Positions 2,527-40,959 of a stretch of 64,000 nucleotides of DNA are shown in pieces (the first letter of the stretch is position 1; each line of letters begins with the position of its first letter). A program made the translations under genes and the position numbers. Where the stretch lies: NCBI GenBank assembly GCA_964557575.1, contig CAZLBC010000001.1, positions 2,296 to 66,295 on the forward strand. The letters run 5' to 3'. Source of the DNA: an uncultured Planctomycetaceae bacterium. GTDB lineage: Bacteria; Planctomycetota; Phycisphaerae; SM23-33. The notes beneath the pieces were generated by a model. It did no database searches, was not told the DNA's origin, and saw only the letters and a list, made by a program, of their open reading frames with translations.

Positions 2527-5500
2527 TTAGTTCGCGCGGAGTTCCTGTTCCTCTTGGCAGTTCGGACCGGAGCAGAACAGCGGGTCTTCGCCGTCCGAAC
2601 CAACGTATTCGGACCAGTCAAGCGGACGGATCGCGGCGCGCCGACGGTTGTACTCCTCTTCCGTGATCCCTTCCTGCGGCGACTGCGCGTACACGCCCGC
2701 CGCCGTGTGCGGAAGAAGCGAAACCGATTTCGTAACGGGAGCCAGCGTGGACAACACGTCTTCGATCTGGTCCTCCTCGTGCATCGGGTTGAACCGGTAC
2801 AGTTTCATGCCGGTTGAGTCGCTTGTTATCCGTATGGCGGAATCCGCGTACTCCTCGCTTTCGGACAGCGTCCGCAGGATTCGCGGCGCGTCGTGCGGGT
2901 CGATGATCGGGTCGTGCAACCCGAACAAAAAGCCTTGGAGTTCATCAGAGTTCGGCAACGCTTCCGGCTTCCACGCCTTTGTCAGGACCCACTTCGGTTT
3001 GAAGAAGAGAGTATTTGACACCGCATTATCAGACCACTCCCTTTGCACGAACATGAGGTTCGCGGCCTGCTCCCACAGACTCGCCTCCGTCGCGGGCTTC
3101 GCCGGTCCTTGAAGAACCGGGAACTCGAAGACGAGCGTTTTCGGGTTGACCTTGTCCGGTTCGCAGGGAACCCCGGCGTCCTGCAAGACAGACACGACAG
3201 GGGCCGTCTCGGAGACGCGCACGCGCATCAGCGTGTGGCGGAACGTCGGGTACCCGATCCCGCTGGTCCGGCCAGCCAACTTGGGCGTGGTTCCTCCCGG
3301 TTTCACGGTCGTGACGCGGATGCTTTCCGGGATACCGGCTTCGGCCGCGAGATCGCGGTTGACTTCACGAATCAAGTTGTAACCGTCTCGGAGCCACCGG
3401 GTGACCTTGTTGATCGGATGCGCCGCCTTCCAACCGGTCAGGTCGACGAGACCGACCCCGATGCGCCGGTTCCGCGCGACGACGCGGTTCGTTTCAGGAG
3501 AGTGCGTCGGAAGCAGGTTGACGCTGCTGCAGTAGATCGCGGCGTACCGGCACGCGTTGAGCCAGTCTTCGACGGTATTGCACCGCGTCGGGAGCGTCTC
3601 GGCGATGTTGCACGTTTCGAACGATTCCAAGGGGACCTCGCCGCACTGTTTGGACGAAACCCACACTTCCTTGTCTCGGCCCCCGTCGGTCGTACCCGCG
3701 AAACCTCCGATGAAGAAGCGGTGTGTTTCGTCCACGGTTCCGTTGTACACGTCTTCGTACCCGTCGAACTCCACAGATATAACTTTGTGGTTATACCCGT
3801 CGGCGCGTTTCTCCAAGTCCTTCCACGACTGGAACGGCGAGGACTTCCGGCAGATTTCAGAGGATACCCCGGACGCCCTGCACGCTTCCACCCATTCCAT
3901 CTTCTTCGGTGTCCGCCCCAGTTCAAACGACAAGTCCAAGAAGACTGCGATCTGTTGTTCCCGGACGTTCTCCCGGCGCGCGTCAAACGTCTTCTTCCTC
4001 CCCTCACGGCGTTTCGCGATCAATCCCGGGTCGGAGTTCATCGCGGCCAGCGAGACTTCGTGAGAGGCGTACGCTTGCTCTCTTCGGTTGGACGGTACGA
4101 TAAACGTTTCTCCTGTCGCTTCACAGACCTTCGTGACCATGACGCGCCCGTCAACAATACCCGCTTCCAGCCCGGATTCCAACAGTTCGTGCAACAGCCG
4201 CACGGTACGGGGGTCGCAATCGGAGAAGTCTTCGACTCCCGCCTTCGCGGCGCACCGCTTGGCGAACGCCGTAATCGTTCCAAGTTCAGCCTTCCGGAAT
4301 TTCGAGAACGACGTCGGAAGATCGCGAGTGACGGCGTACTCCTGCCATTCTTGCTTCGAAAACCTGCGACCGAGATGCCCGGCGAGGTTCACCCCGTGTT
4401 CTAAGAGCGCATCGTTAGTCACGCCGCAGTATCGGGAATTGCTCTCTCCGTCCGAGTGCTCAGACAGATGCGGGAACTCCGATCGGATTTCGAGGTTTTC
4501 AGTCCGGTTATCCGTTTTGCGGCCGTTTATGTGATGAACATGAAGTCCCTGCCGGGGTTCGATCCCGAAGTGCGCCTGCGCGATCAGCCTGTGTTCAGCG
4601 CGCGTTTCGCCGCCAATTGAGAACGTATTGTACTGATCGGCTCTCGATTCACTGCGTCCGTCCGGGAAGTACCGGCTCAAAATACGGAGGGAGTCCCCGC
4701 ACGAGAGTTCTTCGACGGCCTTGGTTTCCTGTCCGCCGCGCAGGTACAACTTGTGGTTCCCCGTCAAGCGCAGGATGTCGCCGCTGTCCAGCACGACCTT
4801 GTACACCGCGACTTTCTTGCCCGTCGCCCGGGGACGGCGCATCCAGTGGATGCCCAACGATCCGTCCAACAACTCGGTGAAGACCCGGACGTCCTGTCCG
4901 GATTCCGCGAGTTCCCGTATCGGGACGGCTCCCCGTCCGTCCGCCGTCAAAACCAGCGTATCTCCAGTCATACACGGGTTCAACCCGGTCGCCTTGTCTT
5001 CCCGCACGTTCGACGCTTTTCCGACGCGCAGGCGGCCGCGCTTCACGTTGACCATGTTCAGGTACCCCGGCTCGCCGTTCTTGATCACGCGTTCGGCGAT
5101 CTCTCCGAGCTTGGCGAAGTCCTCGGGGGTTTCGAGAATCACGCTGTTGTTCGACATCCATCCGATTTCGGCGCGATCCGGATGCTTTTCGTAGTCCTTC
5201 AAATCGGCGAACGTCGGATCGCTGACCGGGGCCAACGAAATTTCTGCGCTACGCCGGACATTTCCGGCGACAACGCAGCATCCGATCGCGTTGAAGATGT
5301 CGACCTTCAACCGCATGGAATCGTATTCGTGTTCGGGGTCGAGAATTTCCGATCCGGGGTTGATGTTGTTGCGCCATTCGCGGTATTTGCGGAAGTACGT
5401 TCGGATTCTCTCGTGCAGTTCCTTGAGCGGGCCGGGACCGGAAGCGCGTCCGCCGAATCCCCGGATCGGCGATCCCTCCGGACGGATTTCAGAGTAGTCG

Positions 5501-6159
5501 AACGTCCACTTCGGCTGGTCCGGGCGAAGATACGAGTCAATCAACCGTTGAACGGATTCGCACCAGCCTTCCCGGCTGTCCGGGATCACGTAGGTTTCTT
5601 CGTTTTCCTCGGGAGGTTCGACGACCTCCGTCAAGTCGTTGCGGTACGGGCGGAATCCGACGCCCACGCCGTTCATCAGGGCGTCCATCGTCCAGTACGC
5701 GGCTTTTCCGATGTTTTCCCTCACCTCGACGAAGGCGCAGTTGAACAGGGCCATTCCGCCGCGTTCGTAGATGTAATCGGTGCCCATCGCCCACAAGCCC
5801 CGGCCCGGCGGCATCCATTCCATCTTGAACGCGGAGACCGCCATTTTGTACGCGGTCTCCTGCCATTTGTCTTCGTCCCATCGGATGCGGTTCCGAATGT
5901 AATGGTTCTTCCGGATGGACAGAACGCCTTCGATCACGCGCTTGATCACTTGCCACCAGCGTTCCTGCCCGATCTGGACAGGATCGCCGTTTTCATCGCG
6001 GACCAGCTCTCCGGTATCCCGGTCGCGGTCCCAAACAGCGCGTGAATACGTGCGGTAAAAGACGAACTCGCCGATTTCCCCGAAGTCCGGTTCCATCGTA
6101 CGGAGATTGTAAACGGTCGATTCGGCGAGGGTGAAGCGGTTTTCTTTGGGTACGAACAC
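2527..6159 (-). CDS. nrdJ: class II (adenosylcobalamin-dependent, NrdJ-like) ribonucleotide reductase, intein-containing
   Basis: Has the FVFYRTYSR N-terminal motif. The catalytic-site motif NP-CGEVPLESFETCN is split by a 443-aa insert. GTG start with GGAGG 6 nt upstream (alternative ATG at 6096, or the ORF start at 6231). Confidence 0.8.
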   Translation of the reverse strand: MFVPKENRFTLAESTVYNLRTMEPDFGEIGEFVFYRTYSRAVWDRDRDTGELVRDENGDPVQIGQERWWQVIKRVIEGVLSIRKNHYIRNRIRWDEDKWQETAYKMAVSAFKMEWMPPGRGLWAMGTDYIYERGGMALFNCAFVEVRENIGKAAYWTMDALMNGVGVGFRPYRNDLTEVVEPPEENEETYVIPDSREGWCESVQRLIDSYLRPDQPKWTFDYSEIRPEGSPIRGFGGRASGPGPLKELHERIRTYFRKYREWRNNINPGSEILDPEHEYDSMRLKVDIFNAIGCCVVAGNVRRSAEISLAPVSDPTFADLKDYEKHPDRAEIGWMSNNSVILETPEDFAKLGEIAERVIKNGEPGYLNMVNVKRGRLRVGKASNVREDKATGLNPCMTGDTLVLTADGRGAVPIRELAESGQDVRVFTELLDGSLGIHWMRRPRATGKKVAVYKVVLDSGDILRLTGNHKLYLRGGQETKAVEELSCGDSLRILSRYFPDGRSESRADQYNTFSIGGETRAEHRLIAQAHFGIEPRQGLHVHHINGRKTDNRTENLEIRSEFPHLSEHSDGESNSRYCGVTNDALLEHGVNLAGHLGRRFSKQEWQEYAVTRDLPTSFSKFRKAELGTITAFAKRCAAKAGVEDFSDCDPRTVRLLHELLESGLEAGIVDGRVMVTKVCEATGETFIVPSNRREQAYASHEVSLAAMNSDPGLIAKRREGRKKTFDARRENVREQQIAVFLDLSFELGRTPKKMEWVEACRASGVSSEICRKSSPFQSWKDLEKRADGYNHKVISVEFDGYEDVYNGTVDETHRFFIGGFAGTTDGGRDKEVWVSSKQCGEVPLESFETCNIAETLPTRCNTVEDWLNACRYAAIYCSSVNLLPTHSPETNRVVARNRRIGVGLVDLTGWKAAHPINKVTRWLRDGYNLIREVNRDLAAEAGIPESIRVTTVKPGGTTPKLAGRTSGIGYPTFRHTLMRVRVSETAPVVSVLQDAGVPCEPDKVNPKTLVFEFPVLQGPAKPATEASLWEQAANLMFVQREWSDNAVSNTLFFKPKWVLTKAWKPEALPNSDELQGFLFGLHDPIIDPHDAPRILRTLSESEEYADSAIRITSDSTGMKLYRFNPMHEEDQIEDVLSTLAPVTKSVSLLPHTAAGVYAQSPQEGITEEEYNRRRAAIRPLDWSEYVGSDGEDPLFCSGPNCQEEQELRAN
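3646..4974 (-). mobile_element. intein with HNH homing-endonuclease domain inside nrdJ
   Basis: Begins CMTGDTLVLTADG (block A) with block B RLTGNHKLYL. Has an internal HHINGRKTDNRTENL HNH motif. Block F/G-like EDVYNGTVDETHRFFIGG ends ...SSKQ followed by extein Cys (CGEV), so it appears to end in Gln rather than Asn. Confidence 0.7.
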
Positions 6160-6362
6160 GGGCGGGCCTCCAAACGGTTGATGTTGCGCACAATCCTGTT
6201 TTATACATCGCCCGGATTGCGGTGTCCACACTCAATACATCGGGCAGGGAGGGCTAATCCGAACATAAACTTTTCGGGATTTTACAAAAAACATCACAAG
6301 TCGCTGGTTCCGTCCGGATTTTCAAACGAACTTGGAAACCCGGACGGACCCTGAAAAAATTT

Positions 6363-13615: not shown

Positions 13616-16477
13616 CTAAAATGGGGCGACCGCAAGTTCCGATTCCGGCAGACGGGACAGGTCGTAAATGTTTGCCTTTTCCGCTTTCTTCGGCTTCGCG
13701 TCGGCGTGATCGCCGAGGTCGACCGGAGCTTCCGCCTTCCGGGAGTTCAACGCGGCGTCGATGTTGCGCGCCTTCTTCGCGATCGTCTCGGCGATGTACG
13801 CGTCCAGCGATTCGTCGACAACGATGTAGTAGCTGTTGACGCATTGCGTTTGCCCGATCCGATTGGCGCGGTCCTCGGCCTGATCGACATCGCCCGGCCG
13901 CCACGGCAGTTCGGCGAAAACGACCGACGTCGCTTCGGTCAGCGTGATTCCTTCCCGGCAGGCTTGGATCGATCCGACGAAGACGCGGATGCCGTCGTCG
14001 TTCTGGAAGCGGTCGATCGACTCCTGCTTGGCCGCGTCGTCCATGCCGCCCTGCACCTGCACGACGCCGTATTCGGAAAGCGCGGCGGCGACTTGGTCCT
14101 GCACGTCGCGGTGATGCGCGAAAACGATTACTTTCTTGTTGCCGGACAGGACCTGATCGGCGAACTCGGCCGCGTGCTTGATCTTCAGCGATCCGATTTC
14201 CGCGCGAAGTTTGCTCATTTCTTCGAACAGGGCCGGGCTTCCCCGCAATTCGGAGATCGCTTCTTCGGCGTTGCCTTCGTTGATGTCTTCGAGCGAAATC
14301 CCGGCGTCCGACAACAGCTTGCGCTGCCGGGCTAGAATCCGCGACGCGCCCTTGACGTCCGACGGGTCCAACCGGACGACAGTGCGAATCTTGCCGGGGA
14401 GTTCCGTCAGGACTTCGGACTTCATCCGGCGCAGCATGAACTTCGAACGCATGATGCGCTGCAATTCATCGAGATTCGTCGCGCCGTCGTCCACCCAGCC
14501 CCAGCGGCCTTGATGCGCGCCGCAGTAACGGCGGGTGTACTTCTTGTAACCGCGACCAAGGCCCTTGGGATCGAGGTGGCGCAGCATCGCGTACAATTCC
14601 TTCGGACGGTTCGGGCAGGGGGTTCCGGTCAGGAAGTAGTTGCGGTTCGCCCGGTGCGCGACGCCTTCGACCTCGCGCCTCTTGCCGGAATCCCAGTAGC
14701 CGAACGCGATTTTCGCGCGGGTGGCCGTCCGGGTGTTCTTTCCGTAGTGGGCTTCGTCCCACACGGCGACGTCCCACGAGTAGTTCATCAGCCCGGGGCG
14801 GACGTTCTTCTGCGACAGGTTCGACCATCCGCAGATAACGAAATTCGCACGGGGGTCAATCGTCTTGTTGCCGTTGACGACTTGGATGGTCCAATCGCCG
14901 ACGAGCCACTTCTCGGCTTCCCGCTTCCAGTTCAGCCGCACGCTGGGCGGACAAACGACCAGCACTTTGCGGACGGACTTGTCGGCGTTGACCGCGCCGA
15001 GGACCTGAATGGTGTTGTGTGTCAGGATCGCGTGTTCCGTAACGTACAATCGGTCGGCGGCGTCAACGGAAATACAAACGCTTTCCACGTCGCGGACGTA
15101 CTCGACAGACTTAACCGTGCGGACGGGGTGCGCGTGTTTTCCGGGGTTGTACTTAGAAACCTTGCGACGGATAGTAAAGGGAGCTATCGTTTTTGGCAGG
15201 CGAATACGCACGGGGTACTCCGTGGGTTTCCCCTCGGAAGATCGATCGTATTCGTGTACAGACGCGATGCCGCCCAAACACTCCACCAGTTCTTGAACAT
15301 CGCAGGCGAGCGACCGGCTCGTCGTGTGATACGTCAGCCGGTTCCGTTCGGCACTGCAGCCGCCATCGCAGTCCATGAGTCCCTGCAACAGAGCGATACG
15401 CTGCGCCGGGGAGGATTCAAGGTACTGACGTGGTATGCGTTTGTCCTTGCTTCCGACGTCCAACCCGAGTTCCCTGATGCTTCTGATCGTTTCAAGAATA
15501 ACCGTGCGCGACGCGTTATCATACGTTTGGATCGCCCCGATTTCCGCCCCTGCCTTGACGATGTTTTCAACTATCTCGTCCAAGTCGGCGGCGTTCACCG
15601 TCGCCACTGCGCTGCTGCCCCTGAGACCCCCGTTCGCTATCAGTACGCCGAGCACGTACGCGGGCACGGGCAGTTCGGCGGCAGCACCAAACCGGGCAGG
15701 TCCAGATAGCATAGGCAACTGCAGCTTCACACCTTCCAAGTTCAGCTTCGTCGCTCTACCCTTCTCGTGCGATAACTCGATAGTCGGCCGATCCAGAAGC
15801 TGCTGGGTAGTTAGCGTCAGGTCGCTCAAGGTTCGCCCCCCGCGCCAGTATTTGACAGTCCACAGGTGCTCTGGACCGGACTCTACGCGGGACTCGTCAC
15901 TGAAGGTAACACGGTAACTTGGCTTCACACCCTGCGGGAACACGCCGACGACGTTCACGGGATGTCCGTCGCTGCCAATGACACGATCGCCCACACGCAG
16001 TGAGCCTATCGTCGTCCACCCGGTCGGTGTCAGCACGTGTGTGTCCACAGGTTGCTGCTTTCCGAGGCCCATGTCGTCGGCCAACAGGACGTCGCTGCTG
16101 TTGACGAGGTACTCAATGCCCGCCTTCTGAAACGGCATGTAAGCGAGTCCCTCGGGGGCCGGGGCGTCGAAGTCGCCGGTCGTGGCGCGGGAGCCGTTGA
16201 TGCGGTCGAGGATCGGCTGCACGAGAGCTTTGACGGCGTCGTCGCAGTAGTCGATCAGCGGCACGCACTTGTCCGCTTGTTTCGCCCGGCAGAACCACGT
16301 GCAAGGGGTGCCGGTTTCAGAGCCGGACTTGTCGAACGCGAACCCGACGCCGCCGCGCTTCCTTGAAAGGGCCGAGACGTCGTTCCAGTACGCGTCGCGT
16401 TCGGCCGGGCTTCCCCGGAAGGCTCCGGACAGTTCCGCGACGATCAGGTTCTTGTCTTTGCTCAGGGTCAGTTTCAT
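13616..16477 (-). CDS. SNF2-family helicase, intein-containing
   Basis: GGAGGACACC RBS. The P-loop LLADDMGLGK-[349 aa]-TIQVLGAV reconstitutes DEMGLGKT. C-terminal helicase motifs are present (DEAHYGKN, LTGTPCPN). Confidence 0.8.
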   Translation of the reverse strand: MKLTLSKDKNLIVAELSGAFRGSPAERDAYWNDVSALSRKRGGVGFAFDKSGSETGTPCTWFCRAKQADKCVPLIDYCDDAVKALVQPILDRINGSRATTGDFDAPAPEGLAYMPFQKAGIEYLVNSSDVLLADDMGLGKQQPVDTHVLTPTGWTTIGSLRVGDRVIGSDGHPVNVVGVFPQGVKPSYRVTFSDESRVESGPEHLWTVKYWRGGRTLSDLTLTTQQLLDRPTIELSHEKGRATKLNLEGVKLQLPMLSGPARFGAAAELPVPAYVLGVLIANGGLRGSSAVATVNAADLDEIVENIVKAGAEIGAIQTYDNASRTVILETIRSIRELGLDVGSKDKRIPRQYLESSPAQRIALLQGLMDCDGGCSAERNRLTYHTTSRSLACDVQELVECLGGIASVHEYDRSSEGKPTEYPVRIRLPKTIAPFTIRRKVSKYNPGKHAHPVRTVKSVEYVRDVESVCISVDAADRLYVTEHAILTHNTIQVLGAVNADKSVRKVLVVCPPSVRLNWKREAEKWLVGDWTIQVVNGNKTIDPRANFVICGWSNLSQKNVRPGLMNYSWDVAVWDEAHYGKNTRTATRAKIAFGYWDSGKRREVEGVAHRANRNYFLTGTPCPNRPKELYAMLRHLDPKGLGRGYKKYTRRYCGAHQGRWGWVDDGATNLDELQRIMRSKFMLRRMKSEVLTELPGKIRTVVRLDPSDVKGASRILARQRKLLSDAGISLEDINEGNAEEAISELRGSPALFEEMSKLRAEIGSLKIKHAAEFADQVLSGNKKVIVFAHHRDVQDQVAAALSEYGVVQVQGGMDDAAKQESIDRFQNDDGIRVFVGSIQACREGITLTEATSVVFAELPWRPGDVDQAEDRANRIGQTQCVNSYYIVVDESLDAYIAETIAKKARNIDAALNSRKAEAPVDLGDHADAKPKKAEKANIYDLSRLPESELAVAPF
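15011..16057 (-). mobile_element. class-3-type intein with LAGLIDADG homing endonuclease in SNF2 P-loop
   Basis: Starts QQPVDTHVLTPTG (Gln at position 1, block A DT). Trp in block B (EHLW), Cys in block F (ESVCISVD) and Thr in block G (ILTHN|T) give the WCT signature. LAGLIDADG motifs YVLGVLIANGG and LLQGLMDCDGG. Confidence 0.7.
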
Positions 16478-30651: not shown

Positions 30652-32910
30652 CTATTCGTGTCTGCGCGTCCGTCTGGACGACTTGCGATCGTGCGGGTCC
30701 TCCCGTTCGGCCTTCACGCCTTCCGTGCGAAAAGACGACCGATGGTGCGACGGCGGACCGTCCTCGTTTTTCTCGGCGGTTTCCCGCGCCTGCTGTTCCC
30801 GGATTTGCTGGCCGAAGACGGACGCCGCTCCTTCCGGCGTCGGCCGGTAAACGTACAACGGAACGGGGATGAACCGTTCGGTCTTGATCATTCCCGATTT
30901 CGCCATGCGCTCCGAATAATCGGCGTCCTCGCCGAAACTGGCGTTAATGAAGGGGAACTTGATCGCGATCGACCGGCGAACGGCGTTCCAGTGGTTCGGC
31001 GGCCGGAAGTACATGTGATCGTTCTCGAAATAATGGTCGTACATCAGGCTGTGAATGAACGGCTTGGGCGGGTCGGACATCATCATTCCGCCGAACGTGA
31101 CCGCGTCCACGTCTCCGGCGGCCAACGCGCCGAGGATCGTCTCCATGTACTTGTCAGAGACGTCGTCGTCATCGTCGAGGAACATGATGTATTCCCCGCG
31201 AGCGCGTTGAATCAAATTCGTTCGCTTCTCGCCGATCGTCCGCTGTCCGGAGTCCTCGTCGATCAGAATTTCAACGCTCCGTTCCATCCGGATCGCGCGA
31301 ATCTGGTCCGCGATCTTCCCGCACAACGCCGTGCGCATGTCGCGCCGCTTTACCATCGTCGGCATCAGGATCGATAAGAGCATGCGCGGCTGTACGCCGC
31401 CGAAATCCTCGGATTTTCGCCGAAGGTAGACCGGTTGGTCGATGTGGTAAAACTTGGAATCCCGGGAGTACAACTCGTCGGTAATCTCCGCGCCGTGCGT
31501 GGACGGGTGGACGTGGTGAACAACCGACCAGTCAATGTACGCCTGCCGGGCGAGGAGACCGCCGACGTCCGTGAACTCGTTGTCGCACCACATCCCCTGA
31601 TACGCGGGATTGTACGCGTACCCGAAGCGGTCGTAATACTTCTTTCCGACGATGACCTGCGTGTTCAACCGCTTGCCGACGCCGCCGTCGTGAAACCAAA
31701 GGCTCCCGTCGGTATCCGGGAAATACTTCTCCATGGCCATGAGGATCGCGTCGTCCCACCCGGCGAACTGGGGAATGACGTCGTCTTGCGCGAGCATCAT
31801 GACGTCCCACGGTTCCGTAACGTCGTTGATCCCCCGATTGAACGCGTCGATCTTGTTCCTCGACGAACCGCCGACGATCGTGATCTCGCATCCGTACGCT
31901 TCACACGCGGCGACGCGCTGCAGGATTTCCTCGGTCATGGTTTCATCGTCATCGTCGTACACGACGAGAAAGTGAACCTCGTTGCGCCGCGAAAGCTGCC
32001 TGCAGTATTTTTTCTCGAACACGTCGAGGAACTTCTCCGGACGTGAACGCGTCGGAAACTTGACCAAGAGCCGGTGCATCCGGCGAACGCCGCCGCCGAG
32101 TTGCAAGAAGTTGGACGCCGGACGTTCCGGCGCGTTGCCTCGTCCGACCATGTTCTCGATGTTGTGGCGCGCGAAATCGTTCCGGTTCGGTTCGTGCGCT
32201 TTGTCGTACAAGAGACTGTCGAGGTAATCCGCCGGGTTTTCCTCGGACTTCAGTTTCGATATCGGCACGACCGTCTTTCCGAACGACACGGCCTTGGACA
32301 CGGGACGTTCCGTTTCCCGCGCCGGATCGTAGAACACGACACGGGAACACATGATTGCCTTGTCAATGTCGTCCGGCATGCAGACCGAATAGTTCACCGG
32401 GAACTGCGACAGCGTGTCCACGACATCCTTGGTCACCGGGGGGAGGATCGTGAACTGCTGCCGGTTCTTCAAAAAAGCCTGAATCAACTTCAGCCATCCG
32501 GGGTCGTCCACCGGAAGGCCGTACACGCACACTTCGGATGACGGAACATTGAAAGACACCGGTGCCCACGCGCTGTTTCCGACCACGCTGCGAAGCGTGT
32601 CGACGTCGCTTTTCACGGCCGTGATGATCCCGGCGAACCGGCCTTCCTTGGCAGCCGTCATGGAACGGATCAGGAGTTTCCGATCGACGGACGCGACCAG
32701 TCCGAACACGCGCCCCGGAAACTGTTTGCACAAGTACCGGGTGCCAAACGCGTCCGGGTCGTCGGCGACGAAAAACCAGTCGTACCGGGACAGGCTGAGG
32801 TGCATCGCCCGGTCGATCGGGTAGAAATCGAACCCCTGCGCGACGGCGAGGGCCTCGGCATACGCGTAAGCGGCTTTCGTCTTTGTCGACGCGATTACAC
32901 AGGCTTTCAT
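30652..32910 (-). CDS. multidomain glycosyltransferase (two GT-A/GT2-like DxD domains)
   Basis: LSILMPTMVKRRD...IMFLDDDDDVSDKY and VHFLVVYDDDDETMTEEIL show GT2 DxD signatures. 752 aa. Confidence 0.7.
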   Translation of the reverse strand: MKACVIASTKTKAAYAYAEALAVAQGFDFYPIDRAMHLSLSRYDWFFVADDPDAFGTRYLCKQFPGRVFGLVASVDRKLLIRSMTAAKEGRFAGIITAVKSDVDTLRSVVGNSAWAPVSFNVPSSEVCVYGLPVDDPGWLKLIQAFLKNRQQFTILPPVTKDVVDTLSQFPVNYSVCMPDDIDKAIMCSRVVFYDPARETERPVSKAVSFGKTVVPISKLKSEENPADYLDSLLYDKAHEPNRNDFARHNIENMVGRGNAPERPASNFLQLGGGVRRMHRLLVKFPTRSRPEKFLDVFEKKYCRQLSRRNEVHFLVVYDDDDETMTEEILQRVAACEAYGCEITIVGGSSRNKIDAFNRGINDVTEPWDVMMLAQDDVIPQFAGWDDAILMAMEKYFPDTDGSLWFHDGGVGKRLNTQVIVGKKYYDRFGYAYNPAYQGMWCDNEFTDVGGLLARQAYIDWSVVHHVHPSTHGAEITDELYSRDSKFYHIDQPVYLRRKSEDFGGVQPRMLLSILMPTMVKRRDMRTALCGKIADQIRAIRMERSVEILIDEDSGQRTIGEKRTNLIQRARGEYIMFLDDDDDVSDKYMETILGALAAGDVDAVTFGGMMMSDPPKPFIHSLMYDHYFENDHMYFRPPNHWNAVRRSIAIKFPFINASFGEDADYSERMAKSGMIKTERFIPVPLYVYRPTPEGAASVFGQQIREQQARETAEKNEDGPPSHHRSSFRTEGVKAEREDPHDRKSSRRTRRHE

Positions 32911-33712: not shown

Positions 33713-35455
33713 TTATTCGGCGGTCTGCTCCGAGGTCTTGTCGGTCTTGTCGGACTTCTCTTTCTCTTTCTCCGCACGTTTGCGCTCTTCTTCGAGGGCG
33801 TCAAGCCGTTCGGCGAACTCCGCGCGGAACTTCACGCGTTCGTCGCCCTGCCGCAGGTCCGATTCAACCATTTTCATCAGGTCTCGCGGGAGCTGCAGTC
33901 CGACATTCCGAGACTCGACGCGCCATTCGACATTCCGTTGCTGACCCTCTTGGATCGCCTGCGCGACTTTCGGGTGCGTCATCACGTTTTCGGTCGCTTC
34001 CTCGGGAGACGCCCCGGTATTCCGAAGGTCGTGTAGCGCGTCGATGACGGTCTCGGTAAACGACTTCGTGAATATCGGAAACTCCGTAAGAACGACTTCC
34101 AACCACGCGGATTCATCGACCCCGAGCGTCGAACCGATCCGCGCGAGCGTCTCCATGGACCGCAGCCGCGCCTCGAACGTTTCCAGCCGGTATAGCTCTT
34201 CCAACGCGCTGGGCGGAACCATGCACAGGGTAAACGAATTTTCCTCGATGAGCGGATCGACGCCTCTGTACTTCAAATCCATCATCGCCAAACGGGCGAC
34301 CTCTGCAAGAAAAATCCTCTGGAGATTCGCGGCTTGCCGCGCGAACCTCGAATCCTGCTGAGACGGGCTTCGTTCGAAATTCGCTTGCCCCTCGTACCCG
34401 AAGTACCCCTTCGGCGCGCGCAACGCGCCGAACATGCGGTCGAGGAACATTTCGAGGTCCCGCATGTCGTCGACGCCCTTGGTTCCGGGAAGCACTTCAA
34501 CGTCCGTTTGATCCGCTTCGCGGAACCAGATGAAGAAATCCTCGTTTTCAGCCAGCAACGTGTACACGCTGGCGAAGTCGACGTTCGTCGGGTCGAAGTT
34601 ATAATCGCGCTTGACGTTCCGACGGTACTTCTCGATTTTCATTTCGGCGTCCACCGCGCCGAGACCGGTCACATCGATCTTGTGCTTGTAACGGTCGGGG
34701 TTTCGAAGCAACCGCATCAACGCGACCTTGTCCTCCATCATCTGAACCTGACGCCAGATGCGGCGGGCACCGAACAGCGTGGACGTTCCGTAAATTCGCC
34801 GCACGCTTCGCCCCAGTTTCCGGAAATGCAGGAAATCCCACGGCTTGGACAGAAGCTGAATGTTCTTCTGCTTGCTGACTTGCATGCCGTAGTTGTAGGT
34901 TTCCTCCGACTGGTACGGCGTGAAACCGCGAAGACGTCCGTACTCGTCGTGTACGCGGGAAATCGTCGCCGGGTGGTAGTTTATCAGCCGCTGAACGCCT
35001 GACTTCGGCTCCGCCAGAATGAACTCGAACTCGTCGCCGTACTTGGCCAACTGCCGCATGATCGGCTGCGCCAATTCGTCGGAAAGTCCGGTTTCGGCCA
35101 ACATGCTGTTGACCATGGACTCGACGTCCTTGTTGTGGCTCTCGCACCATACGATGACTCCGCGCCGGGCGTCGCGCTGCGTGGCGTCTTCGGTCAATTG
35201 TTCGAGGAACGCGAAGATCGTCGGGTCCAATTCCATCTCATCGTACAGGGCGTAGAGCAACGCCCGCTCCTCCTCGAACTGGAGGAGTTGGTTGTACATC
35301 ATCGACATCGGGTTCGGCACGACTCCGGTCGGCGTCTCGACGCCCATCGCGCCGGGGAACGGGAGCCGAACCGGTTGACGCGAAAGCGGCTTGTCGTAGC
35401 CGTAAAGCTGCAGAAGCGACGGTTCCGGAGAAAGAGAATATCTTTTGACAACCAC
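33713..35455 (-). CDS. portal protein (putative)
   Basis: 580-aa gene starting 3 nt after the terminase stop. GTG start after AGGGAGG. Call rests on size and position. Confidence 0.5.
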   Translation of the reverse strand: MVVKRYSLSPEPSLLQLYGYDKPLSRQPVRLPFPGAMGVETPTGVVPNPMSMMYNQLLQFEEERALLYALYDEMELDPTIFAFLEQLTEDATQRDARRGVIVWCESHNKDVESMVNSMLAETGLSDELAQPIMRQLAKYGDEFEFILAEPKSGVQRLINYHPATISRVHDEYGRLRGFTPYQSEETYNYGMQVSKQKNIQLLSKPWDFLHFRKLGRSVRRIYGTSTLFGARRIWRQVQMMEDKVALMRLLRNPDRYKHKIDVTGLGAVDAEMKIEKYRRNVKRDYNFDPTNVDFASVYTLLAENEDFFIWFREADQTDVEVLPGTKGVDDMRDLEMFLDRMFGALRAPKGYFGYEGQANFERSPSQQDSRFARQAANLQRIFLAEVARLAMMDLKYRGVDPLIEENSFTLCMVPPSALEELYRLETFEARLRSMETLARIGSTLGVDESAWLEVVLTEFPIFTKSFTETVIDALHDLRNTGASPEEATENVMTHPKVAQAIQEGQQRNVEWRVESRNVGLQLPRDLMKMVESDLRQGDERVKFRAEFAERLDALEEERKRAEKEKEKSDKTDKTSEQTAE

Positions 35456-35458
35456 GGC

Positions 35459-38400
35459 TTACGCCTCCCTGTTCTGAATCATTTCCCGGACCTTTTTAAG
35501 CGTCGACTCCTGATAGGTCATCGCGCCGTCGACGGTCGGAGTCAACAGTGTACCGACCTGCTCGTCCTGCATGCAATTCCAAACCGCGCCGCACACGGAG
35601 TCTGAAACATCCTTGCTGTTGTGCACAAAAACCCCGACCGAAAGAGCGAAATTATTCCACTCGTCGACTTCAAGGTCGTAGACGGGAACCGGCTCGTCCA
35701 GAGTAACCGGAATAACGTACCGGACTCGATGGTTGTCGCCGGTTTCATCAGCCAAGTACCGGTCCCGGCTTTCGTACCCGCCATTACGTGGAAACTGACG
35801 AGTTATCGGCATCAACCGGTCCCGCACGGGTACGAGGTCTTTGGCGCGCTTATACGAACCGTCTCGGAGCATCCATAGGTGTTCCGGAGTGCACCGAGCA
35901 ACCGCGCCGTTGTCGAGTATCACGTCAATCAGGTTCTTCGTGGTCTTCGTTTTACGCCCGCGCGCCCAACCGGCGACGATACTCCCGTCAGGCCGTGCGG
36001 AATAGACCCATCCTTCCCAACCGTCCAATTCCGAAATCCGGCGACACGTCCCGTCAAGCAGCGGGATTCGGGTGTCACCCGTAAAACAACCGCCCGGAGG
36101 GTGATCAATCTTGTCTTCGTCAGTCAACTCCAACGCGAGCAACTCGTCCTCAAGAACCTCGTGTTTCGGCCATGTAATCCGGTTCTCGTTCAGGATTGTT
36201 TTGAAAACATAATACTGTTCCGGACGCCTGTCGAGCGTCAGATACCCGGCTTCGATCCGGGACTTCTTCAGGTATTGAATTTCCCCCTGACCGGCCGGAG
36301 AGTCGTACGTTACTTTTCGGAGGACGAAGTTTTTCTCTTTCAGCCACAGGATGAAATCGCGGATTTTCTCCCAGTCCACTTCGTCCGTGTCAGGCGTGAT
36401 CTGAAGCGCGAAGTCGACCTCTATCGTCAACTCCGTACGCCGGTCGTAGTGTCCGGTGTCGGTACGGACCTGCCGCGAAACGGCTTTCGTCGGGTGGACC
36501 ATCGCGACGCCGACGGCGTCGCCGTTTCGCGAAATGTCAACATGGATGTACCGGGGGGAGTGCGGCATGCGTTTCGGGACGTCGCGGGAAGATCGAACCG
36601 TAAGGAACTCTTCGCGGAGAACGTAGTCCTGAATGCGGTCCGGGCGTTGAAGGTCGATCTTCATCGGACAGTCCCAGCGCGCTCCCATCCCGGCAACGAA
36701 CGGGTGCGGAAGAACGGCCTCCCCGTCGTTCTCCCACTCGACGGAAGCCTCTATAATCGGCTGGCCGCGAGGGAAGAACGGATTGATCGCTTCCGACGGT
36801 ATCCCGGCGATGTCGCGCAGGGAACCGATCGGGTCTTCGTTGAACGCGCGGAAATCCTCCACCGGGACGTCAATAGTGCGAACGCCGCGCGGAGGATTTC
36901 CTCCCTTCTTGATGCGAAACTGTCCGAATCCAAGGTTTTCCACGCCGTCGAGACAATGCGGCTTCACGAATTTGTTGCCGACAACAAATCGAAACGTCAA
37001 CCCCGATTCCCGCCGTCCGGATTTCGGCTGAAATTCCCACTGCGGGCCGCCGACGACGTGCACGTTCCGGTTGTTGGCAACCTCGCGCTTCCGAATTTCC
37101 AAGTACGAGTTTGACGCCTTCGTGGACGAAATGTGAATGATCATGCCGGACGTCGCGAACCGCGATTCCATGCGCCGGGAAGTTTGCTGGACGAGGCTGT
37201 GGACCTTCCCCTTCTCTTCCAACGTCTTGGCCTTCTTCTGCTTCTTCGTCTGCATGTGGAAGTTCATTTCGTCGATGGCCAGACAAAACAGGTTGTGTCC
37301 AAGAACGTGAAAAGCAGCGGAACCGATCATAAACTTAATATTCTTGGGGAAATGCAGTTCGCTGTACTGCTCCTTGTACCAGAACTTCTCCTTGAAATAC
37401 GGCGACTGGTCCAGAAGACCGAGAAGCGTCGACATTCCGACATCCGTCAATCTCAACGTCGCGTTGTAAATACCGAAGACGATCGGAGACCCCTTGGACA
37501 ACCCGTGGTATCCGGCGGGATCGCGCAGGCAGGACAACTGATAAAGTTTGAAGATCATCATGACCATGGAATTGAACGTGTTGTGACTCATGAATCCGTC
37601 GGAAACGTAACTCGGGTCGTCCTCCACCGACAAGTCGTAGCAGTGCGCGTGATCGTCGTCCACGGTTTCGACCGTATCAAATAGCAGGTGTCCTCTGGCG
37701 ATAGCGCACAGAACGTCAGGAAGCGTTCCCGCCGCATCCAAGACCTCGTTCAAGAGCCGTCTGGTTGCACGTTGTTTAACGAGGCGTCTCAGGAGCCGGG
37801 ACGGTCCCTTGCGCTTTTCGTACCCGTCTGGAGCCTCTCCGCGTTTGTGCCGGGGCTGCATCTTTCGAAGTTCAGCGACGCATGTCTCAGGAATCCTGAA
37901 CGAAAACGAGTGATCACAGTTTCGGTTCCACCGGGAAGCCCGTTCGATCAAAGCCGCTTGTTTCCGGTCGTGGTAGTGACCAATCTGCGCGGCGAACTTT
38001 GCTTGAGAGTCCGTACCGACAACCCGAACGGTATACGCCCGCCCTGTAACGTAACGAGTGCCTGCGTCAGTATACGCGGCTTCCTTTGACGTAACCGAAC
38101 AGTACATTCCGAGCGACGTCAAAAGAACCCGAACCTGACGCGCTAATTGCTCAGACGTTGTCGTGAGGGAACAGTCCGAATCGCCGCTGTACCCGTCGCC
38201 CGAGAACAAACCCCTGAGATACGCGCAAACTCCCGCTCGGCTGCTTCTGAAAACAACTGGAGGAATCGTGCGGGTCCCGCTTTTTTGACCTTCGCCTTCT
38301 CGAAGAACCGAATCCGGTCTTGGTTTAATCGTGAACTCTTTTGAAAACTCAGACCGTGCATCTCGGCTTCGTTCGTGAACCCACTCGATTCCAAGTTCTT

Positions 38401-39172
38401 CCCGAACGAAATCAAAAAGGTTCAAAACATAATCGTATTCCTCTTCGTGTACGCTTACTCGTGCATACCTGACGTCTGGTGTCCAACAACCTTCAGCCGT
38501 TTCCCAACCGAGGGCTTCCATCGCTCCTTCCGAAAAACCTGAATTTGTCGGGAAAGCGTACGGGTATTCCAGAACACAATCGCCTTCGACCAAGTCTTCC
38601 AACGCCACCCATTCGACGTCAAGCCCTCGAAGAACACGAATACGGTGGTTCGGTCGGCCTTCAAATACGTGTCCGTGTTTTGTAGTCACTTTCTTAGTTG
38701 AAGTCAGTCCTTCGTTGTGATACTCGGAAATCGGACAGTACCCTGACTCAGTCAGAACCTCGACGTTCATCCTGTTATCGACAATATCTTCGATTGGAAT
38801 CATCCCGCGAGACGTCGAGATCAGCGTACCTCTTCGGCTACACTTCCCGATTCCAATTCCGCCATCGATGATCACTTCGTTGATCTGATTCCTCGGGTCG
38901 AACGTCGTCAACAATTCCTTTTGCCATCGCGGCCAGATGTCCACGCCGCCGAGGTAGTACGGATTCGTGATAAACTCGTCGATTCCGACCGGAGGCTCGT
39001 CGTAGTCCATCTGCGTAATAAAATCCCGGGACAGCGACTTGCCGCTGTTCCGCAGCGATTCTTCAATTCCGCGAATCGCCCACGTCTTTTCACTGTCCGA
39101 CAACGAATCGAAAAACCGAAGGACTTCCGAGTCGAGCTTCGCCAGCGCAGCGCGAATTTGGTCGACGTTCAT
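35459..39172 (-). CDS. terL: terminase large subunit containing two inteins
   Basis: Walker A GGIGIGK-[intein]-TFNSM reconstitutes GIGKT. ATPase and nuclease regions are present. Position is upstream of the portal gene. Confidence 0.8.
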   Translation of the reverse strand: MNVDQIRAALAKLDSEVLRFFDSLSDSEKTWAIRGIEESLRNSGKSLSRDFITQMDYDEPPVGIDEFITNPYYLGGVDIWPRWQKELLTTFDPRNQINEVIIDGGIGIGKCSRRGTLISTSRGMIPIEDIVDNRMNVEVLTESGYCPISEYHNEGLTSTKKVTTKHGHVFEGRPNHRIRVLRGLDVEWVALEDLVEGDCVLEYPYAFPTNSGFSEGAMEALGWETAEGCWTPDVRYARVSVHEEEYDYVLNLFDFVREELGIEWVHERSRDARSEFSKEFTIKPRPDSVLREGEGQKSGTRTIPPVVFRSSRAGVCAYLRGLFSGDGYSGDSDCSLTTTSEQLARQVRVLLTSLGMYCSVTSKEAAYTDAGTRYVTGRAYTVRVVGTDSQAKFAAQIGHYHDRKQAALIERASRWNRNCDHSFSFRIPETCVAELRKMQPRHKRGEAPDGYEKRKGPSRLLRRLVKQRATRRLLNEVLDAAGTLPDVLCAIARGHLLFDTVETVDDDHAHCYDLSVEDDPSYVSDGFMSHNTFNSMVMMIFKLYQLSCLRDPAGYHGLSKGSPIVFGIYNATLRLTDVGMSTLLGLLDQSPYFKEKFWYKEQYSELHFPKNIKFMIGSAAFHVLGHNLFCLAIDEMNFHMQTKKQKKAKTLEEKGKVHSLVQQTSRRMESRFATSGMIIHISSTKASNSYLEIRKREVANNRNVHVVGGPQWEFQPKSGRRESGLTFRFVVGNKFVKPHCLDGVENLGFGQFRIKKGGNPPRGVRTIDVPVEDFRAFNEDPIGSLRDIAGIPSEAINPFFPRGQPIIEASVEWENDGEAVLPHPFVAGMGARWDCPMKIDLQRPDRIQDYVLREEFLTVRSSRDVPKRMPHSPRYIHVDISRNGDAVGVAMVHPTKAVSRQVRTDTGHYDRRTELTIEVDFALQITPDTDEVDWEKIRDFILWLKEKNFVLRKVTYDSPAGQGEIQYLKKSRIEAGYLTLDRRPEQYYVFKTILNENRITWPKHEVLEDELLALELTDEDKIDHPPGGCFTGDTRIPLLDGTCRRISELDGWEGWVYSARPDGSIVAGWARGRKTKTTKNLIDVILDNGAVARCTPEHLWMLRDGSYKRAKDLVPVRDRLMPITRQFPRNGGYESRDRYLADETGDNHRVRYVIPVTLDEPVPVYDLEVDEWNNFALSVGVFVHNSKDVSDSVCGAVWNCMQDEQVGTLLTPTVDGAMTYQESTLKKVREMIQNREA
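35618..36088 (-). mobile_element. intein 2 (mini-intein) in terminase C-terminal domain
   Basis: CFTGDTRIPLLDG start, block B CTPEHLWM, ends VGVFVHN|S. 157 aa with no endonuclease domain. Confidence 0.7.
37580..38842 (-). mobile_element. intein 1 (LAGLIDADG-type) in terminase P-loop
   Basis: CSRRGTLIST start, block B TKHGHVF, LAGLIDADG-like AMEALGWETAEG and AYLRGLFSGDGY, ends SHN|T. Confidence 0.7.
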
Positions 39173-39173
39173 G

Positions 39174-40241
39174 TCACTCCCCCAGTTGCTTCCTGCGGAT
39201 AATCTTCTTGAGGTGGCGCGGAACCGGCCATTCGAGAAGCATCGAAACGACTTCGTTTATTTCTTGCCAAGTCGCGTCGGGGAACCGCCGCTTCAACCAC
39301 TTCGTATCCGCGCCCAGCGCAGCGAAAGCCCACACCTTGTCCAACCTCGGAACACCTGTCGGAGAACCGACGACGTCCAAAAGCGTGGCGGGGGTGTGCG
39401 ACCGGCAAACGGCGTTCATCCGAAGACTGTGGTGGATCACGTTCGACACCAAGTTGTTCCGTGTCCTCCATTTCTGGACGCGCTGACATCCGCAACCCAT
39501 GACTCGCGCGATTTCGCCGTCCGACCATCCGTCAGCCCACATCTTACGGAAAAACTTTTCGTCCATCCCGAATTTACGCTGCTTCCCGGTCGGAACGCCT
39601 AATTTTCGAAGCCACCGCTTCAACGTGGACTTCGCGACTCCGACGCGTTCCGCGAGTTCCGCGTCGGACATCATCATTCCGCGATCCAAAACCAGTTTCC
39701 TTACCTGCTGCCCCACGGAAACGAACAAAAAGTCCCGGGCCTGCTGCGGGTCGCGGTTCATCCCGAGTTCGGACCGGAGTTTGACAACCGTCGTCTTGGC
39801 GCGTCCCACGGCTTCCGCCAGTTCCCTGTTGCTCAAATGCGGGTTTTCCGTCAGCACCCGTTGTATCTTGTTCCGCAGACGGGTTCGTGCGGCTTTCGAC
39901 CGTTTCGTCGCGACGCCGAGCTTGCGCCGTATGTACGACATCATATCACGCGACACGCCGAGAACCTCGGCTGCTGTTTTACATTTTGCTTTCGGGTTGT
40001 CCGCCATAAACCGCTTGTACCGCTCGCACAATTCGTCCATCTGCGCCGCCGTTCGTTTCGCCGGGCGTCCGACGCGAATGCGAATGACGGATACGTCGGA
40101 CTGGCTGATCATCAAGGCTTCGGCTATTTCAGGGTTCGGGGCGTCCGGGTGTTCATCCAAATAGTCAACCACCGCCTGCCGAAGTCGTTTCGTTTCCGCT
40201 TTCGTGCGACGTTTCTTCTTCTTCTTCTTCTTGCGCGCCAT
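39174..40241 (-). CDS. DNA-binding protein with five tandem HTH repeats (putative terminase small subunit)
   Basis: AGGAGG RBS. N-terminal poly-Lys from a (AAG)n run. Repeated HTH-like units ending ...RKLG or ...ELG. Located directly upstream of terL. Confidence 0.45.
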   Translation of the reverse strand: MARKKKKKKKRRTKAETKRLRQAVVDYLDEHPDAPNPEIAEALMISQSDVSVIRIRVGRPAKRTAAQMDELCERYKRFMADNPKAKCKTAAEVLGVSRDMMSYIRRKLGVATKRSKAARTRLRNKIQRVLTENPHLSNRELAEAVGRAKTTVVKLRSELGMNRDPQQARDFLFVSVGQQVRKLVLDRGMMMSDAELAERVGVAKSTLKRWLRKLGVPTGKQRKFGMDEKFFRKMWADGWSDGEIARVMGCGCQRVQKWRTRNNLVSNVIHHSLRMNAVCRSHTPATLLDVVGSPTGVPRLDKVWAFAALGADTKWLKRRFPDATWQEINEVVSMLLEWPVPRHLKKIIRRKQLGE

Positions 40242-40959
40242 CTTCCGGGGCCTCCTGCACTGGAACGTCAATGACGGGTCCGTCCGGCCCGGCGGAAACC
40301 AAATCGGACCTACCGGCTCCTTCCAAAGCCTTCCAGAACTCGCGCAACCGGTCCCGGGATCGCGGGGATTCCGGAGGTTCGGGCGCGTCGGGATCGTGTT
40401 CGAATATGTTGATAACCGTGTTTGTCTGGTTGAAAAGCTCGTCGACTCCCTTGTTCCGGTCGACGGACATTTTCTTGACGTAGTCCAACGCTTCGCTCAT
40501 CGACTTTTCCATGATCTGGTAGACCTTGGCGAGATTACTGTCGGACATGTCGGCCAAGCGTGCGGGGTCGAGGAGGAGTTCGCGGATGTCTTCCAGTTGT
40601 TCGTACAGCGTGCCGACGGTTTGGATGCGTCGAACGGCAAACAGGTTCAGCGCGACCCGAAATCGCGCGTCGTGGTCCTTCAACAGGTTGTGAATGACCT
40701 GCTGCGCGATGTTGTCGATCTGGTCGTCGGACAGAATATTGCGAACGACGGTGTCCGTAATGGCGGGCATCGAGTCAGGATCGGACAAGTCAAGGAGATT
40801 CAGGTCTTCGCTCGGCGACACCGCACCGTACTTTTCCTGAAACTCCTCCATCGACATCCCGTGCTTCTGCCGGAGATGCGTGTTCGTGATCCGCTTCATC
40901 GACTGCCCGCATATCGGACACTCAATCAGCCTTCGCGCTTTCTTCTTCTTCTTTGCCAT
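40165..40959 (-). CDS. zinc-finger protein (CPICGQ...HLRQKH)
   Basis: Overlaps both neighbours. Both the 3' end and the start are uncertain. Confidence 0.35.
   Translation of the reverse strand: MAKKKKKARRLIECPICGQSMKRITNTHLRQKHGMSMEEFQEKYGAVSPSEDLNLLDLSDPDSMPAITDTVVRNILSDDQIDNIAQQVIHNLLKDHDARFRVALNLFAVRRIQTVGTLYEQLEDIRELLLDPARLADMSDSNLAKVYQIMEKSMSEALDYVKKMSVDRNKGVDELFNQTNTVINIFEHDPDAPEPPESPRSRDRLREFWKALEGAGRSDLVSAGPDGPVIDVPVQEAPEDGAQEEEEEETSHESGNETTSAGGG

Follow-up and report, generated by a model that had tools for sequence, protein, structure and literature searches.

Class 3 inteins are recognized by a non-nucleophilic residue at position 1 that co-varies with a WCT triplet, namely Trp at position 12 of block B, Cys at position 4 of block F and Thr at position 5 of block G, and by Thr or Ser as the +1 residue. 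Most of them are inserted in the P-loops of helicase-type ATPases: DnaB, RecG, SNF2 and terminase (PMC2807308; PMC3196547; PMC4031507). Class 3 inteins in the P-loops of SNF2 and other helicases were established in 2009–2011, and their relatives number in the thousands. Here we analyze an insert in an SNF2-family helicase gene on a stretch of 64,000 nucleotides (contig CAZLBC010000001.1, positions 2,296 to 66,295 of the forward strand; hereafter the window), which is from a large uncharacterised phage. Judging from its sequence, the insert is very likely a class 3 intein, full-length and probably able to splice, that carries a LAGLIDADG domain and lies between the Walker A Lys and Thr of the phage helicase. 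We refer to it as the SNF2 intein.

The Dra Snf2 intein is likewise class 3 and likewise located in a helicase of the SNF2/Rad54 type. It splices efficiently (PMC3196547), and its splicing and its formation of a block F branched intermediate are reported to have been shown by experiment; it is compared here by description. Its host is a bacterium (Deinococcus radiodurans), whereas the host of the SNF2 intein is a phage. The prototype of class 3, the MP Bethlehem (MP-Be) DnaB intein, resembles the SNF2 intein in its phage origin, its length of ~341 residues, its homing endonuclease, the WCT triplet, Thr+1 and an aromatic residue at F4+10, with Pro as residue 1 (PMC2807308). It differs in host gene, in the flanking residue (Gln-1) and in residue 1. 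The best relatives with solved structures are the Mch and Msm DnaB-1 inteins (6rix, 6riy, 6bs8), for which block A (DTPLPTPTGWTT vs DTHVLTPTGWTT), H-x-W, Cys F4 and T-H-N align with the SNF2 intein. All of these are P-loop insertions with a hydroxyl residue at +1; in Msm DnaBi1 the P-loop Ser serves as the +1 residue (PMC6195587), a parallel to the SNF2 intein, where Thr+1 is the Walker A Thr. The Mch and Msm inteins differ in being endonuclease-less mini-inteins in DnaB, with Ala as residue 1 and Asp at B7 where the SNF2 intein has Gly, and Cys48, the redox partner in Msm DnaBi1, has no demonstrated counterpart in the SNF2 intein.

Layout and boundaries of the insert

The precursor reading frame (16477..13616) is uninterrupted and without frameshift, and its ATG is preceded, at a distance of 5 nt, by a GGAGG Shine-Dalgarno sequence. 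In Pfam the precursor matches SNF2-rel_dom (E 1.3e-19) and Helicase_C (E 2.6e-13). Its parts are arranged as follows.

13616..16477, minus strand: precursor SNF2-family helicase gene with the intein; single intact open reading frame, 953 residues, ~105 kDa
16058..16477, minus strand: N-extein, residues 1–140, ending in the Walker A sequence ...DDMGLGK; Lys-1 at 16060..16058
15014..16057, minus strand: intein, 348 residues, ~38 kDa; from Gln1 (CAG, 16057..16055) to Asn348 (AAC, 15016..15014)
13616..15013, minus strand: C-extein, residues 489–953 and stop codon; beginning with Thr+1 (ACC, 15013..15011)

The insert reads QQPVDTHV...EHLW...ESVCISVD...ILTHN, preceded by LLADDMGLGK and followed by TIQVLGAV. 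With a slash marking each splice junction, the two junctions are Lys140/Gln1 and Asn348/Thr+1. Thr+1 (Thr489) is the threonine of the Walker A GK-T, and the motif is cut between Lys140 and Thr489. The sequence strings on which the initial annotation was built (DDMGLGK, QQPVDTHV, EHLW, ESVCISVD and ILTHN/T) are all found, on the minus strand, which had been left unstated. Of the interval it proposed, 15011–16057, the end at 16057 is correct, but the other end should be 15014: position 15011 takes in the Thr+1 codon (15013..15011), and the insert has 348 residues, not 349.

Homologues that lack the insert define where it begins and ends. Two viral-contig loci, L007 and L008, are ~40% identical to the exteins and read LIADEMGLGKTIQALGVVNTD; locus L026 reads ADEMGLGKTIQALA and locus L012 reads DEMGLGKTVEALA. 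Across the junction these intein-less proteins follow the pattern ADEMGLGKT(I/V)(Q/E)AL. Because they run from GLGK to TIQA without a break, both ends of the insert are exactly defined, and its first residue is Gln. Conceptual deletion of residues 141–488 yields GLGKTIQVLGAVNAD, with the predicted spliced junction ...DDMGLGK-TIQVLGAVNADK. The insert is therefore an in-frame element that is absent from homologues and whose removal restores the host motif. The predicted spliced helicase has 605 residues (~67 kDa), and this extein sequence matches the DNA helicase family phrog_62 as one unbroken stretch (E 1e-101). The appropriate annotation of the gene is an SNF2 helicase that contains an intein and has a 605-residue mature product, not a 953-residue helicase.

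These boundaries bear on whether the element could be a class 1 intein with a misplaced start that hides a Cys, Ser or Thr at position 1. Among 214 full-length related inteins, 28–63% identical to the SNF2 intein, nine have Ser or Cys at position 1, and class 1 inteins occupy a K/T P-loop site in a terminase-like gene of the same genome (described below). However, the junction is set at GLGK/TIQ by the intein-less homologues, and the first Ser, Thr or Cys within the insert is Thr6; an intein starting there would leave QQPVD in the P-loop. Since the GLGK/T boundary is fixed and a start at Thr6 is implausible, a missed class 1 nucleophile is excluded. In addition, the alignment of block A places Gln1 onto Ala1 of the solved class 3 inteins, and block F position 4 is Cys, not Asp as in class 1. 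We regard a hidden class 1 nucleophile as having practically no chance of being correct. The claim that the insert has no N-terminal Cys or Ser holds, and the misassigned boundary that had been named as a way to overturn it is ruled out by the same homologues.

Catalytic residues, fold and proposed splicing route

The residues expected to carry out splicing are located in three short segments.

15860..15868, minus strand: block B core His64-Leu65-Trp66 (His B10, Trp B12); aligned to His65 and Trp67 of MchDnaB1
15074..15076, minus strand: Cys328 (TGT) at block F:4, the nucleophile predicted to start the reaction and to carry the branch; aligned to Cys124 of MchDnaB1
15014..15022, minus strand: end of block G, Thr346 (G5), His347 and Asn348; aligned to Thr143-His144-Asn145 of MchDnaB1

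Blocks A, B, F and G are all present, with His B10, a penultimate His, a C-terminal Asn and a Hint fold, as in an intein. The sequence features of class 3 are also complete: Gln1, Trp66, Cys328, Thr346, Thr+1 and a helicase P-loop site. When the intein was compared with all PDB sequences by phmmer, the best matches were the class 3 inteins MchDnaB-1 (6rix, 6riy) and Msm DnaBi1 (6bs8), with E of ~2e-10 to 4e-10; the class 1 intein gp41-1 followed close behind (E 1e-8). The resemblance of the insert to known inteins is well above what chance would give. In the HMMER alignment, the residues listed above pair with those of MchDnaB1 that are named as the catalytic triad and WCT motif in the crystal-structure paper (PMC7664689). 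Furthermore, the residue ten positions after Cys328 is Tyr338, the counterpart of Phe330, an aromatic residue that is essential in the MP-Be DnaB intein (PMC2807308). The signature originally recognized by eye, Trp in block B, Cys in block F and Thr before the terminal His-Asn, thus maps onto class 3 inteins of known structure, and the interpretation of the insert as class 3 is supported at the level of sequence.

Pfam matches of the insert to Hint families are weak, and its strongest match is to LAGLIDADG_3 (E 1.7e-8). The predicted structure agrees with a two-part organization. An AlphaFold2 model of the intein, computed with a 72-sequence alignment, has a mean predicted local distance difference test (pLDDT) score of 96.8 and a predicted template modeling (pTM) score of 0.93. 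In the model, the intein is bipartite: the Hint splicing domain is formed from residues ~1–110 and 305–348, and a two-motif LAGLIDADG domain is placed between the halves. Foldseek searches of the PDB with the whole intein return PI-SceI and the TliVMA and PhoVMA inteins, with query-normalised template modeling (TM) scores of 0.6–0.7. The central endonuclease lobe matches I-DmoI, and the split Hint lobe matches the class 3 inteins MchDnaB1 and Msm DnaBi1, with target-normalised TM scores of 0.81–0.83.

The same pattern extends across the family sample. His B10, Cys F4, Thr G5 and Asn G7 are present in all 214 relatives, Trp B12 and His G6 in 211 each, and the aromatic residue at F4+10 in every one. 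The intein is preceded by G-K in 180 cases, and the +1 residue is Thr in 192, Ser in 20 and Cys in 2. Residue 1 varies: Gln is the most frequent state (88), followed by Ala (46), Glu (27), Leu (16), Pro (11) and Ser (7), and then by Phe (6), Met (5), Gly (5), Cys (2) and His (1), so that 205 of the relatives have a non-nucleophilic residue there, the usual but not universal state in class 3. Across these sequences, an invariant WCT triplet together with a freely varying, mostly non-nucleophilic residue 1 is the covariation that defines class 3. A literature search for Gln1 in a class 3 intein found no report. Being full-length and well folded, the SNF2 intein could serve mechanistic or protein-engineering studies as a class 3 representative with Gln1.

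The family is widespread in sequence databases. A word-indexed search with the whole protein found over 100 SNF2 helicases from metagenomes that carry an insert at this site. An exhaustive phmmer search with the intein alone against 1.84 billion representatives returned 15,526 matches at E<=1e-3, 11,810 at E<=1e-10 and 3,300 at E<=1e-30. The nearest relatives of the intein are metagenomic proteins, with up to 63% identity.

A non-nucleophilic residue 1 is also found in class 2 inteins, raising the question whether Thr+1 could attack the Lys140-Gln1 amide directly, without a block F thioester. The known class 2 inteins, though, are all KlbA orthologues with Ala1, Cys+1, Asp at F4 and Ser at G6 (PMC4031507). 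In the SNF2 intein, the corresponding residues are Gln1, Thr+1, Cys F4 and His G6, and its best PDB sequence matches are class 3 inteins. Such a direct route therefore appears highly improbable.

The chemical steps of a class 3 reaction, and the activity of the endonuclease, are inferred from homologous inteins, those of MP-Be DnaB, Dra Snf2 and Msm/Mch DnaB-1. In the precursor, the P-loop is split, and the protein would be unable to bind ATP properly and should be ATPase-dead. Cys328 (block F:4), aided by His64, Trp66 and Thr346, would attack the Lys140-Gln1 bond, giving an N-extein thioester on Cys328, the block F branched intermediate. The N-extein would then be transferred to the side-chain oxygen of Thr+1, forming the block G branched intermediate. 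Cyclization of Asn348 would release the 38-kDa intein, and an O-to-N acyl shift would complete the 605-residue helicase with a restored GLGKTIQ.

The endonuclease domain and probable mobility

The LAGLIDADG domain proposed in the initial annotation is indeed present as a domain, with both Pfam and structural matches (PI-SceI, TliVMA and I-DmoI). The Pfam match to LAGLIDADG_3 spans intein residues 219–281, and the motifs, Pfam match and I-DmoI/PI-SceI similarities together describe two LAGLIDADG helices in a pseudo-dimeric alpha-beta fold. The motifs are located as follows.

15629..15658, minus strand: LAGLIDADG motif 1, YVLGVLIANG, residues 134–143; the catalytic acidic position is Asn142 (15632–15634)
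15362..15391, minus strand: LAGLIDADG motif 2, LLQGLMDCDG, residues 223–232; the catalytic Asp231 is kept

An acidic catalytic residue is thus found at the end of motif 2 and not of motif 1, where the position is taken by Asn142. The Asp231 position is Asp in 202 of the 214 relatives. At the Asn142 position, Asn is found in 126 and Asp in 80 of them; in a set of 120 sequences, the numbers are 88 and 25. Because most relatives share the Asn, Asn142 is a conserved substitution and not a private decay lesion. A nickase, a binding-only domain or an alternative metal ligand are candidate readings of its function.

Some observations weigh against an active class 3 intein with a working endonuclease. 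The Asn in motif 1 may mean, on sequence grounds, that homing activity is reduced, altered or lost. Block B position 7 is Gly in the SNF2 intein and Asp in Msm DnaBi1; this position is dispensable in the MP-Be DnaB intein (PMC2807308). Finally, the WCT triplet alone, grafted onto a class 1 intein, does not produce splicing (PMC7664689), and the triplet is therefore necessary but not sufficient.

A more radical possibility is that the element is a decayed, non-splicing intein that inactivates the helicase gene, a pseudo-intein like Arth_1007 of Arthrobacter FB24. Non-splicing class 3-like inteins do exist (PMC3196547), and the Asn in place of Asp in motif 1 could be read in this way. But in the Arth_1007 element, His B10 and Cys F4 are missing and hardly any extein is left (PMC3196547), whereas the SNF2 intein keeps all catalytic residues, has both exteins at full length and gives one continuous helicase when conceptually spliced. 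The reading frame is intact, the AlphaFold2 model is extremely confident, and the motif-1 Asn is common to most relatives. We consider decay improbable. Activity is instead favoured by the intact reading frame, a catalytic set that is invariant, a confidently predicted fold and an essential insertion site.

It is conceivable, although we think it rather doubtful, that this sub-family of class 3 inteins in SNF2 P-loops has working clade-specific features: a strongly conserved Gln1-Gln2-Pro3 at the start, Gly at B7 where Asp, Ser or Thr would otherwise be found, and the conserved motif-1 Asn. Through its side-chain amide, Gln1 might help to polarise the scissile Lys-Gln bond and so favour attack by Cys F4, or it might form pyroglutamate on the free intein. 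With the motif-1 Asn, the endonuclease might naturally nick DNA, or only bind it.

The endonuclease domain would originally have spread the intein into intein-less alleles by homing. The guanine-plus-cytosine content at third codon positions is 0.68 in the intein, vs 0.86 in the N-extein and 0.82 in the C-extein, which is consistent with a horizontally acquired insert. Megablast of the helicase gene against 50,697 phage genomes gave no match, and the phage has no close kin among those sequenced. At the protein level, the best phage match to the helicase is 33% (Brevundimonas jumbo phages), and a genome-contig scan returned only five distant loci.

The intein type itself is found in 642 phage records. 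Examples are the SNF2 helicase of Brevundimonas phage Domovoi (GLGK/MASVNT...IVTHN/TIQA), PhiPA3 gp233 (GTGK/AQPLTS...IVTHN/TYMT) and the HepA-like helicase gp175 of mycobacteriophage Alice (GSGK/AEPVSE...ALTHN/SFCA). They share with the SNF2 intein the G-x-G-K junction, H-L-W, Cys-I-x-V-(D/E), T-H-N at the end, Thr or Ser at +1 and a LAGLIDADG domain. They are 32–38% identical to it, have Met, Ala and Ala as residue 1, respectively, and are unannotated in the sequenced phages.

For the Alice gp175 type, both occupied and empty alleles are available. This class-3-like intein (L030, Mycobacterium phage Alice 97410–100349) is present in 11 cluster C1 genomes, and the empty allele is found in ~195 near-identical C1 mycobacteriophage genomes, including Catera gp183, with flanking DNA 98.7–98.8% identical. 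This presence and absence in C1 mycobacteriophages is the classic pattern of a homing element. The Alice gp175 intein has already been catalogued as 'HEL' by Kelley et al. (2016), who describe Lys/Thr as the 'classic' P-loop insertion site (PMC5050341). We also asked if the Alice gp175 intein is the characterised MP-Catera gp206 intein; this identity was rejected, as the Catera orthologue, gp183, is intein-less.

Other inteins and genes in the window

At least four inteins are found within the 64-kb window, the SNF2 intein and at least three more. The window has a guanine-plus-cytosine content of 58%. The other inteins and their host genes are as follows.

35459–39172, minus strand: terminase-like ATPase, 1237 residues, adjoining the portal gene, with two class 1 inteins; 659 residues when spliced
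~38842..37580, minus strand: terminase intein A, 421 residues, with LAGLIDADG; GGIGIGK/CSRRGTLIS...DGFMSHN/TFNS, with Cys1, Asp in block F and a K/T P-loop site
~36088..35618, minus strand: terminase intein B, a 157-residue mini-intein; DHPPGG/CFTGDTRIP...GVFVHN/SKDV, with H-L-W in block B and Asp at F4
2527–6231, minus strand: class II ribonucleotide reductase, 1234 residues, with an intein in the NPCGE motif
~4974..3646, minus strand: ribonucleotide reductase intein, 443 residues, with an HNH endonuclease (PF13392); GLNP/CMTGDTLV...EVWVSSKQ/CGEVPL

The ribonucleotide reductase intein appears to end in Gln, not Asn, and to lack a penultimate His. A paralogous relationship between the SNF2 intein and the window's other inteins was tested and rejected: the sole similarity is a weak LAGLIDADG match to a terminase intein (E 0.002). 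Because class 1 inteins are present at a similar K/T site in the terminase-like gene of the same genome, the two mechanisms can be compared there in a natural setting.

Further genes identified in the window are the following.

30652–32910, minus strand: large glycosyltransferase
33713–35455, minus strand: T4-like portal
39174–40271, minus strand: 365-residue protein with several helix-turn-helix repeats, directly upstream of the terminase-like gene
41565–44033, minus strand: SbcC-like nuclease

The 365-residue protein matches many helix-turn-helix Pfam families, PHROG DNA-binding proteins and one HNH-endonuclease PHROG family. Its gene may be free-standing and homing-endonuclease-like, or regulatory.

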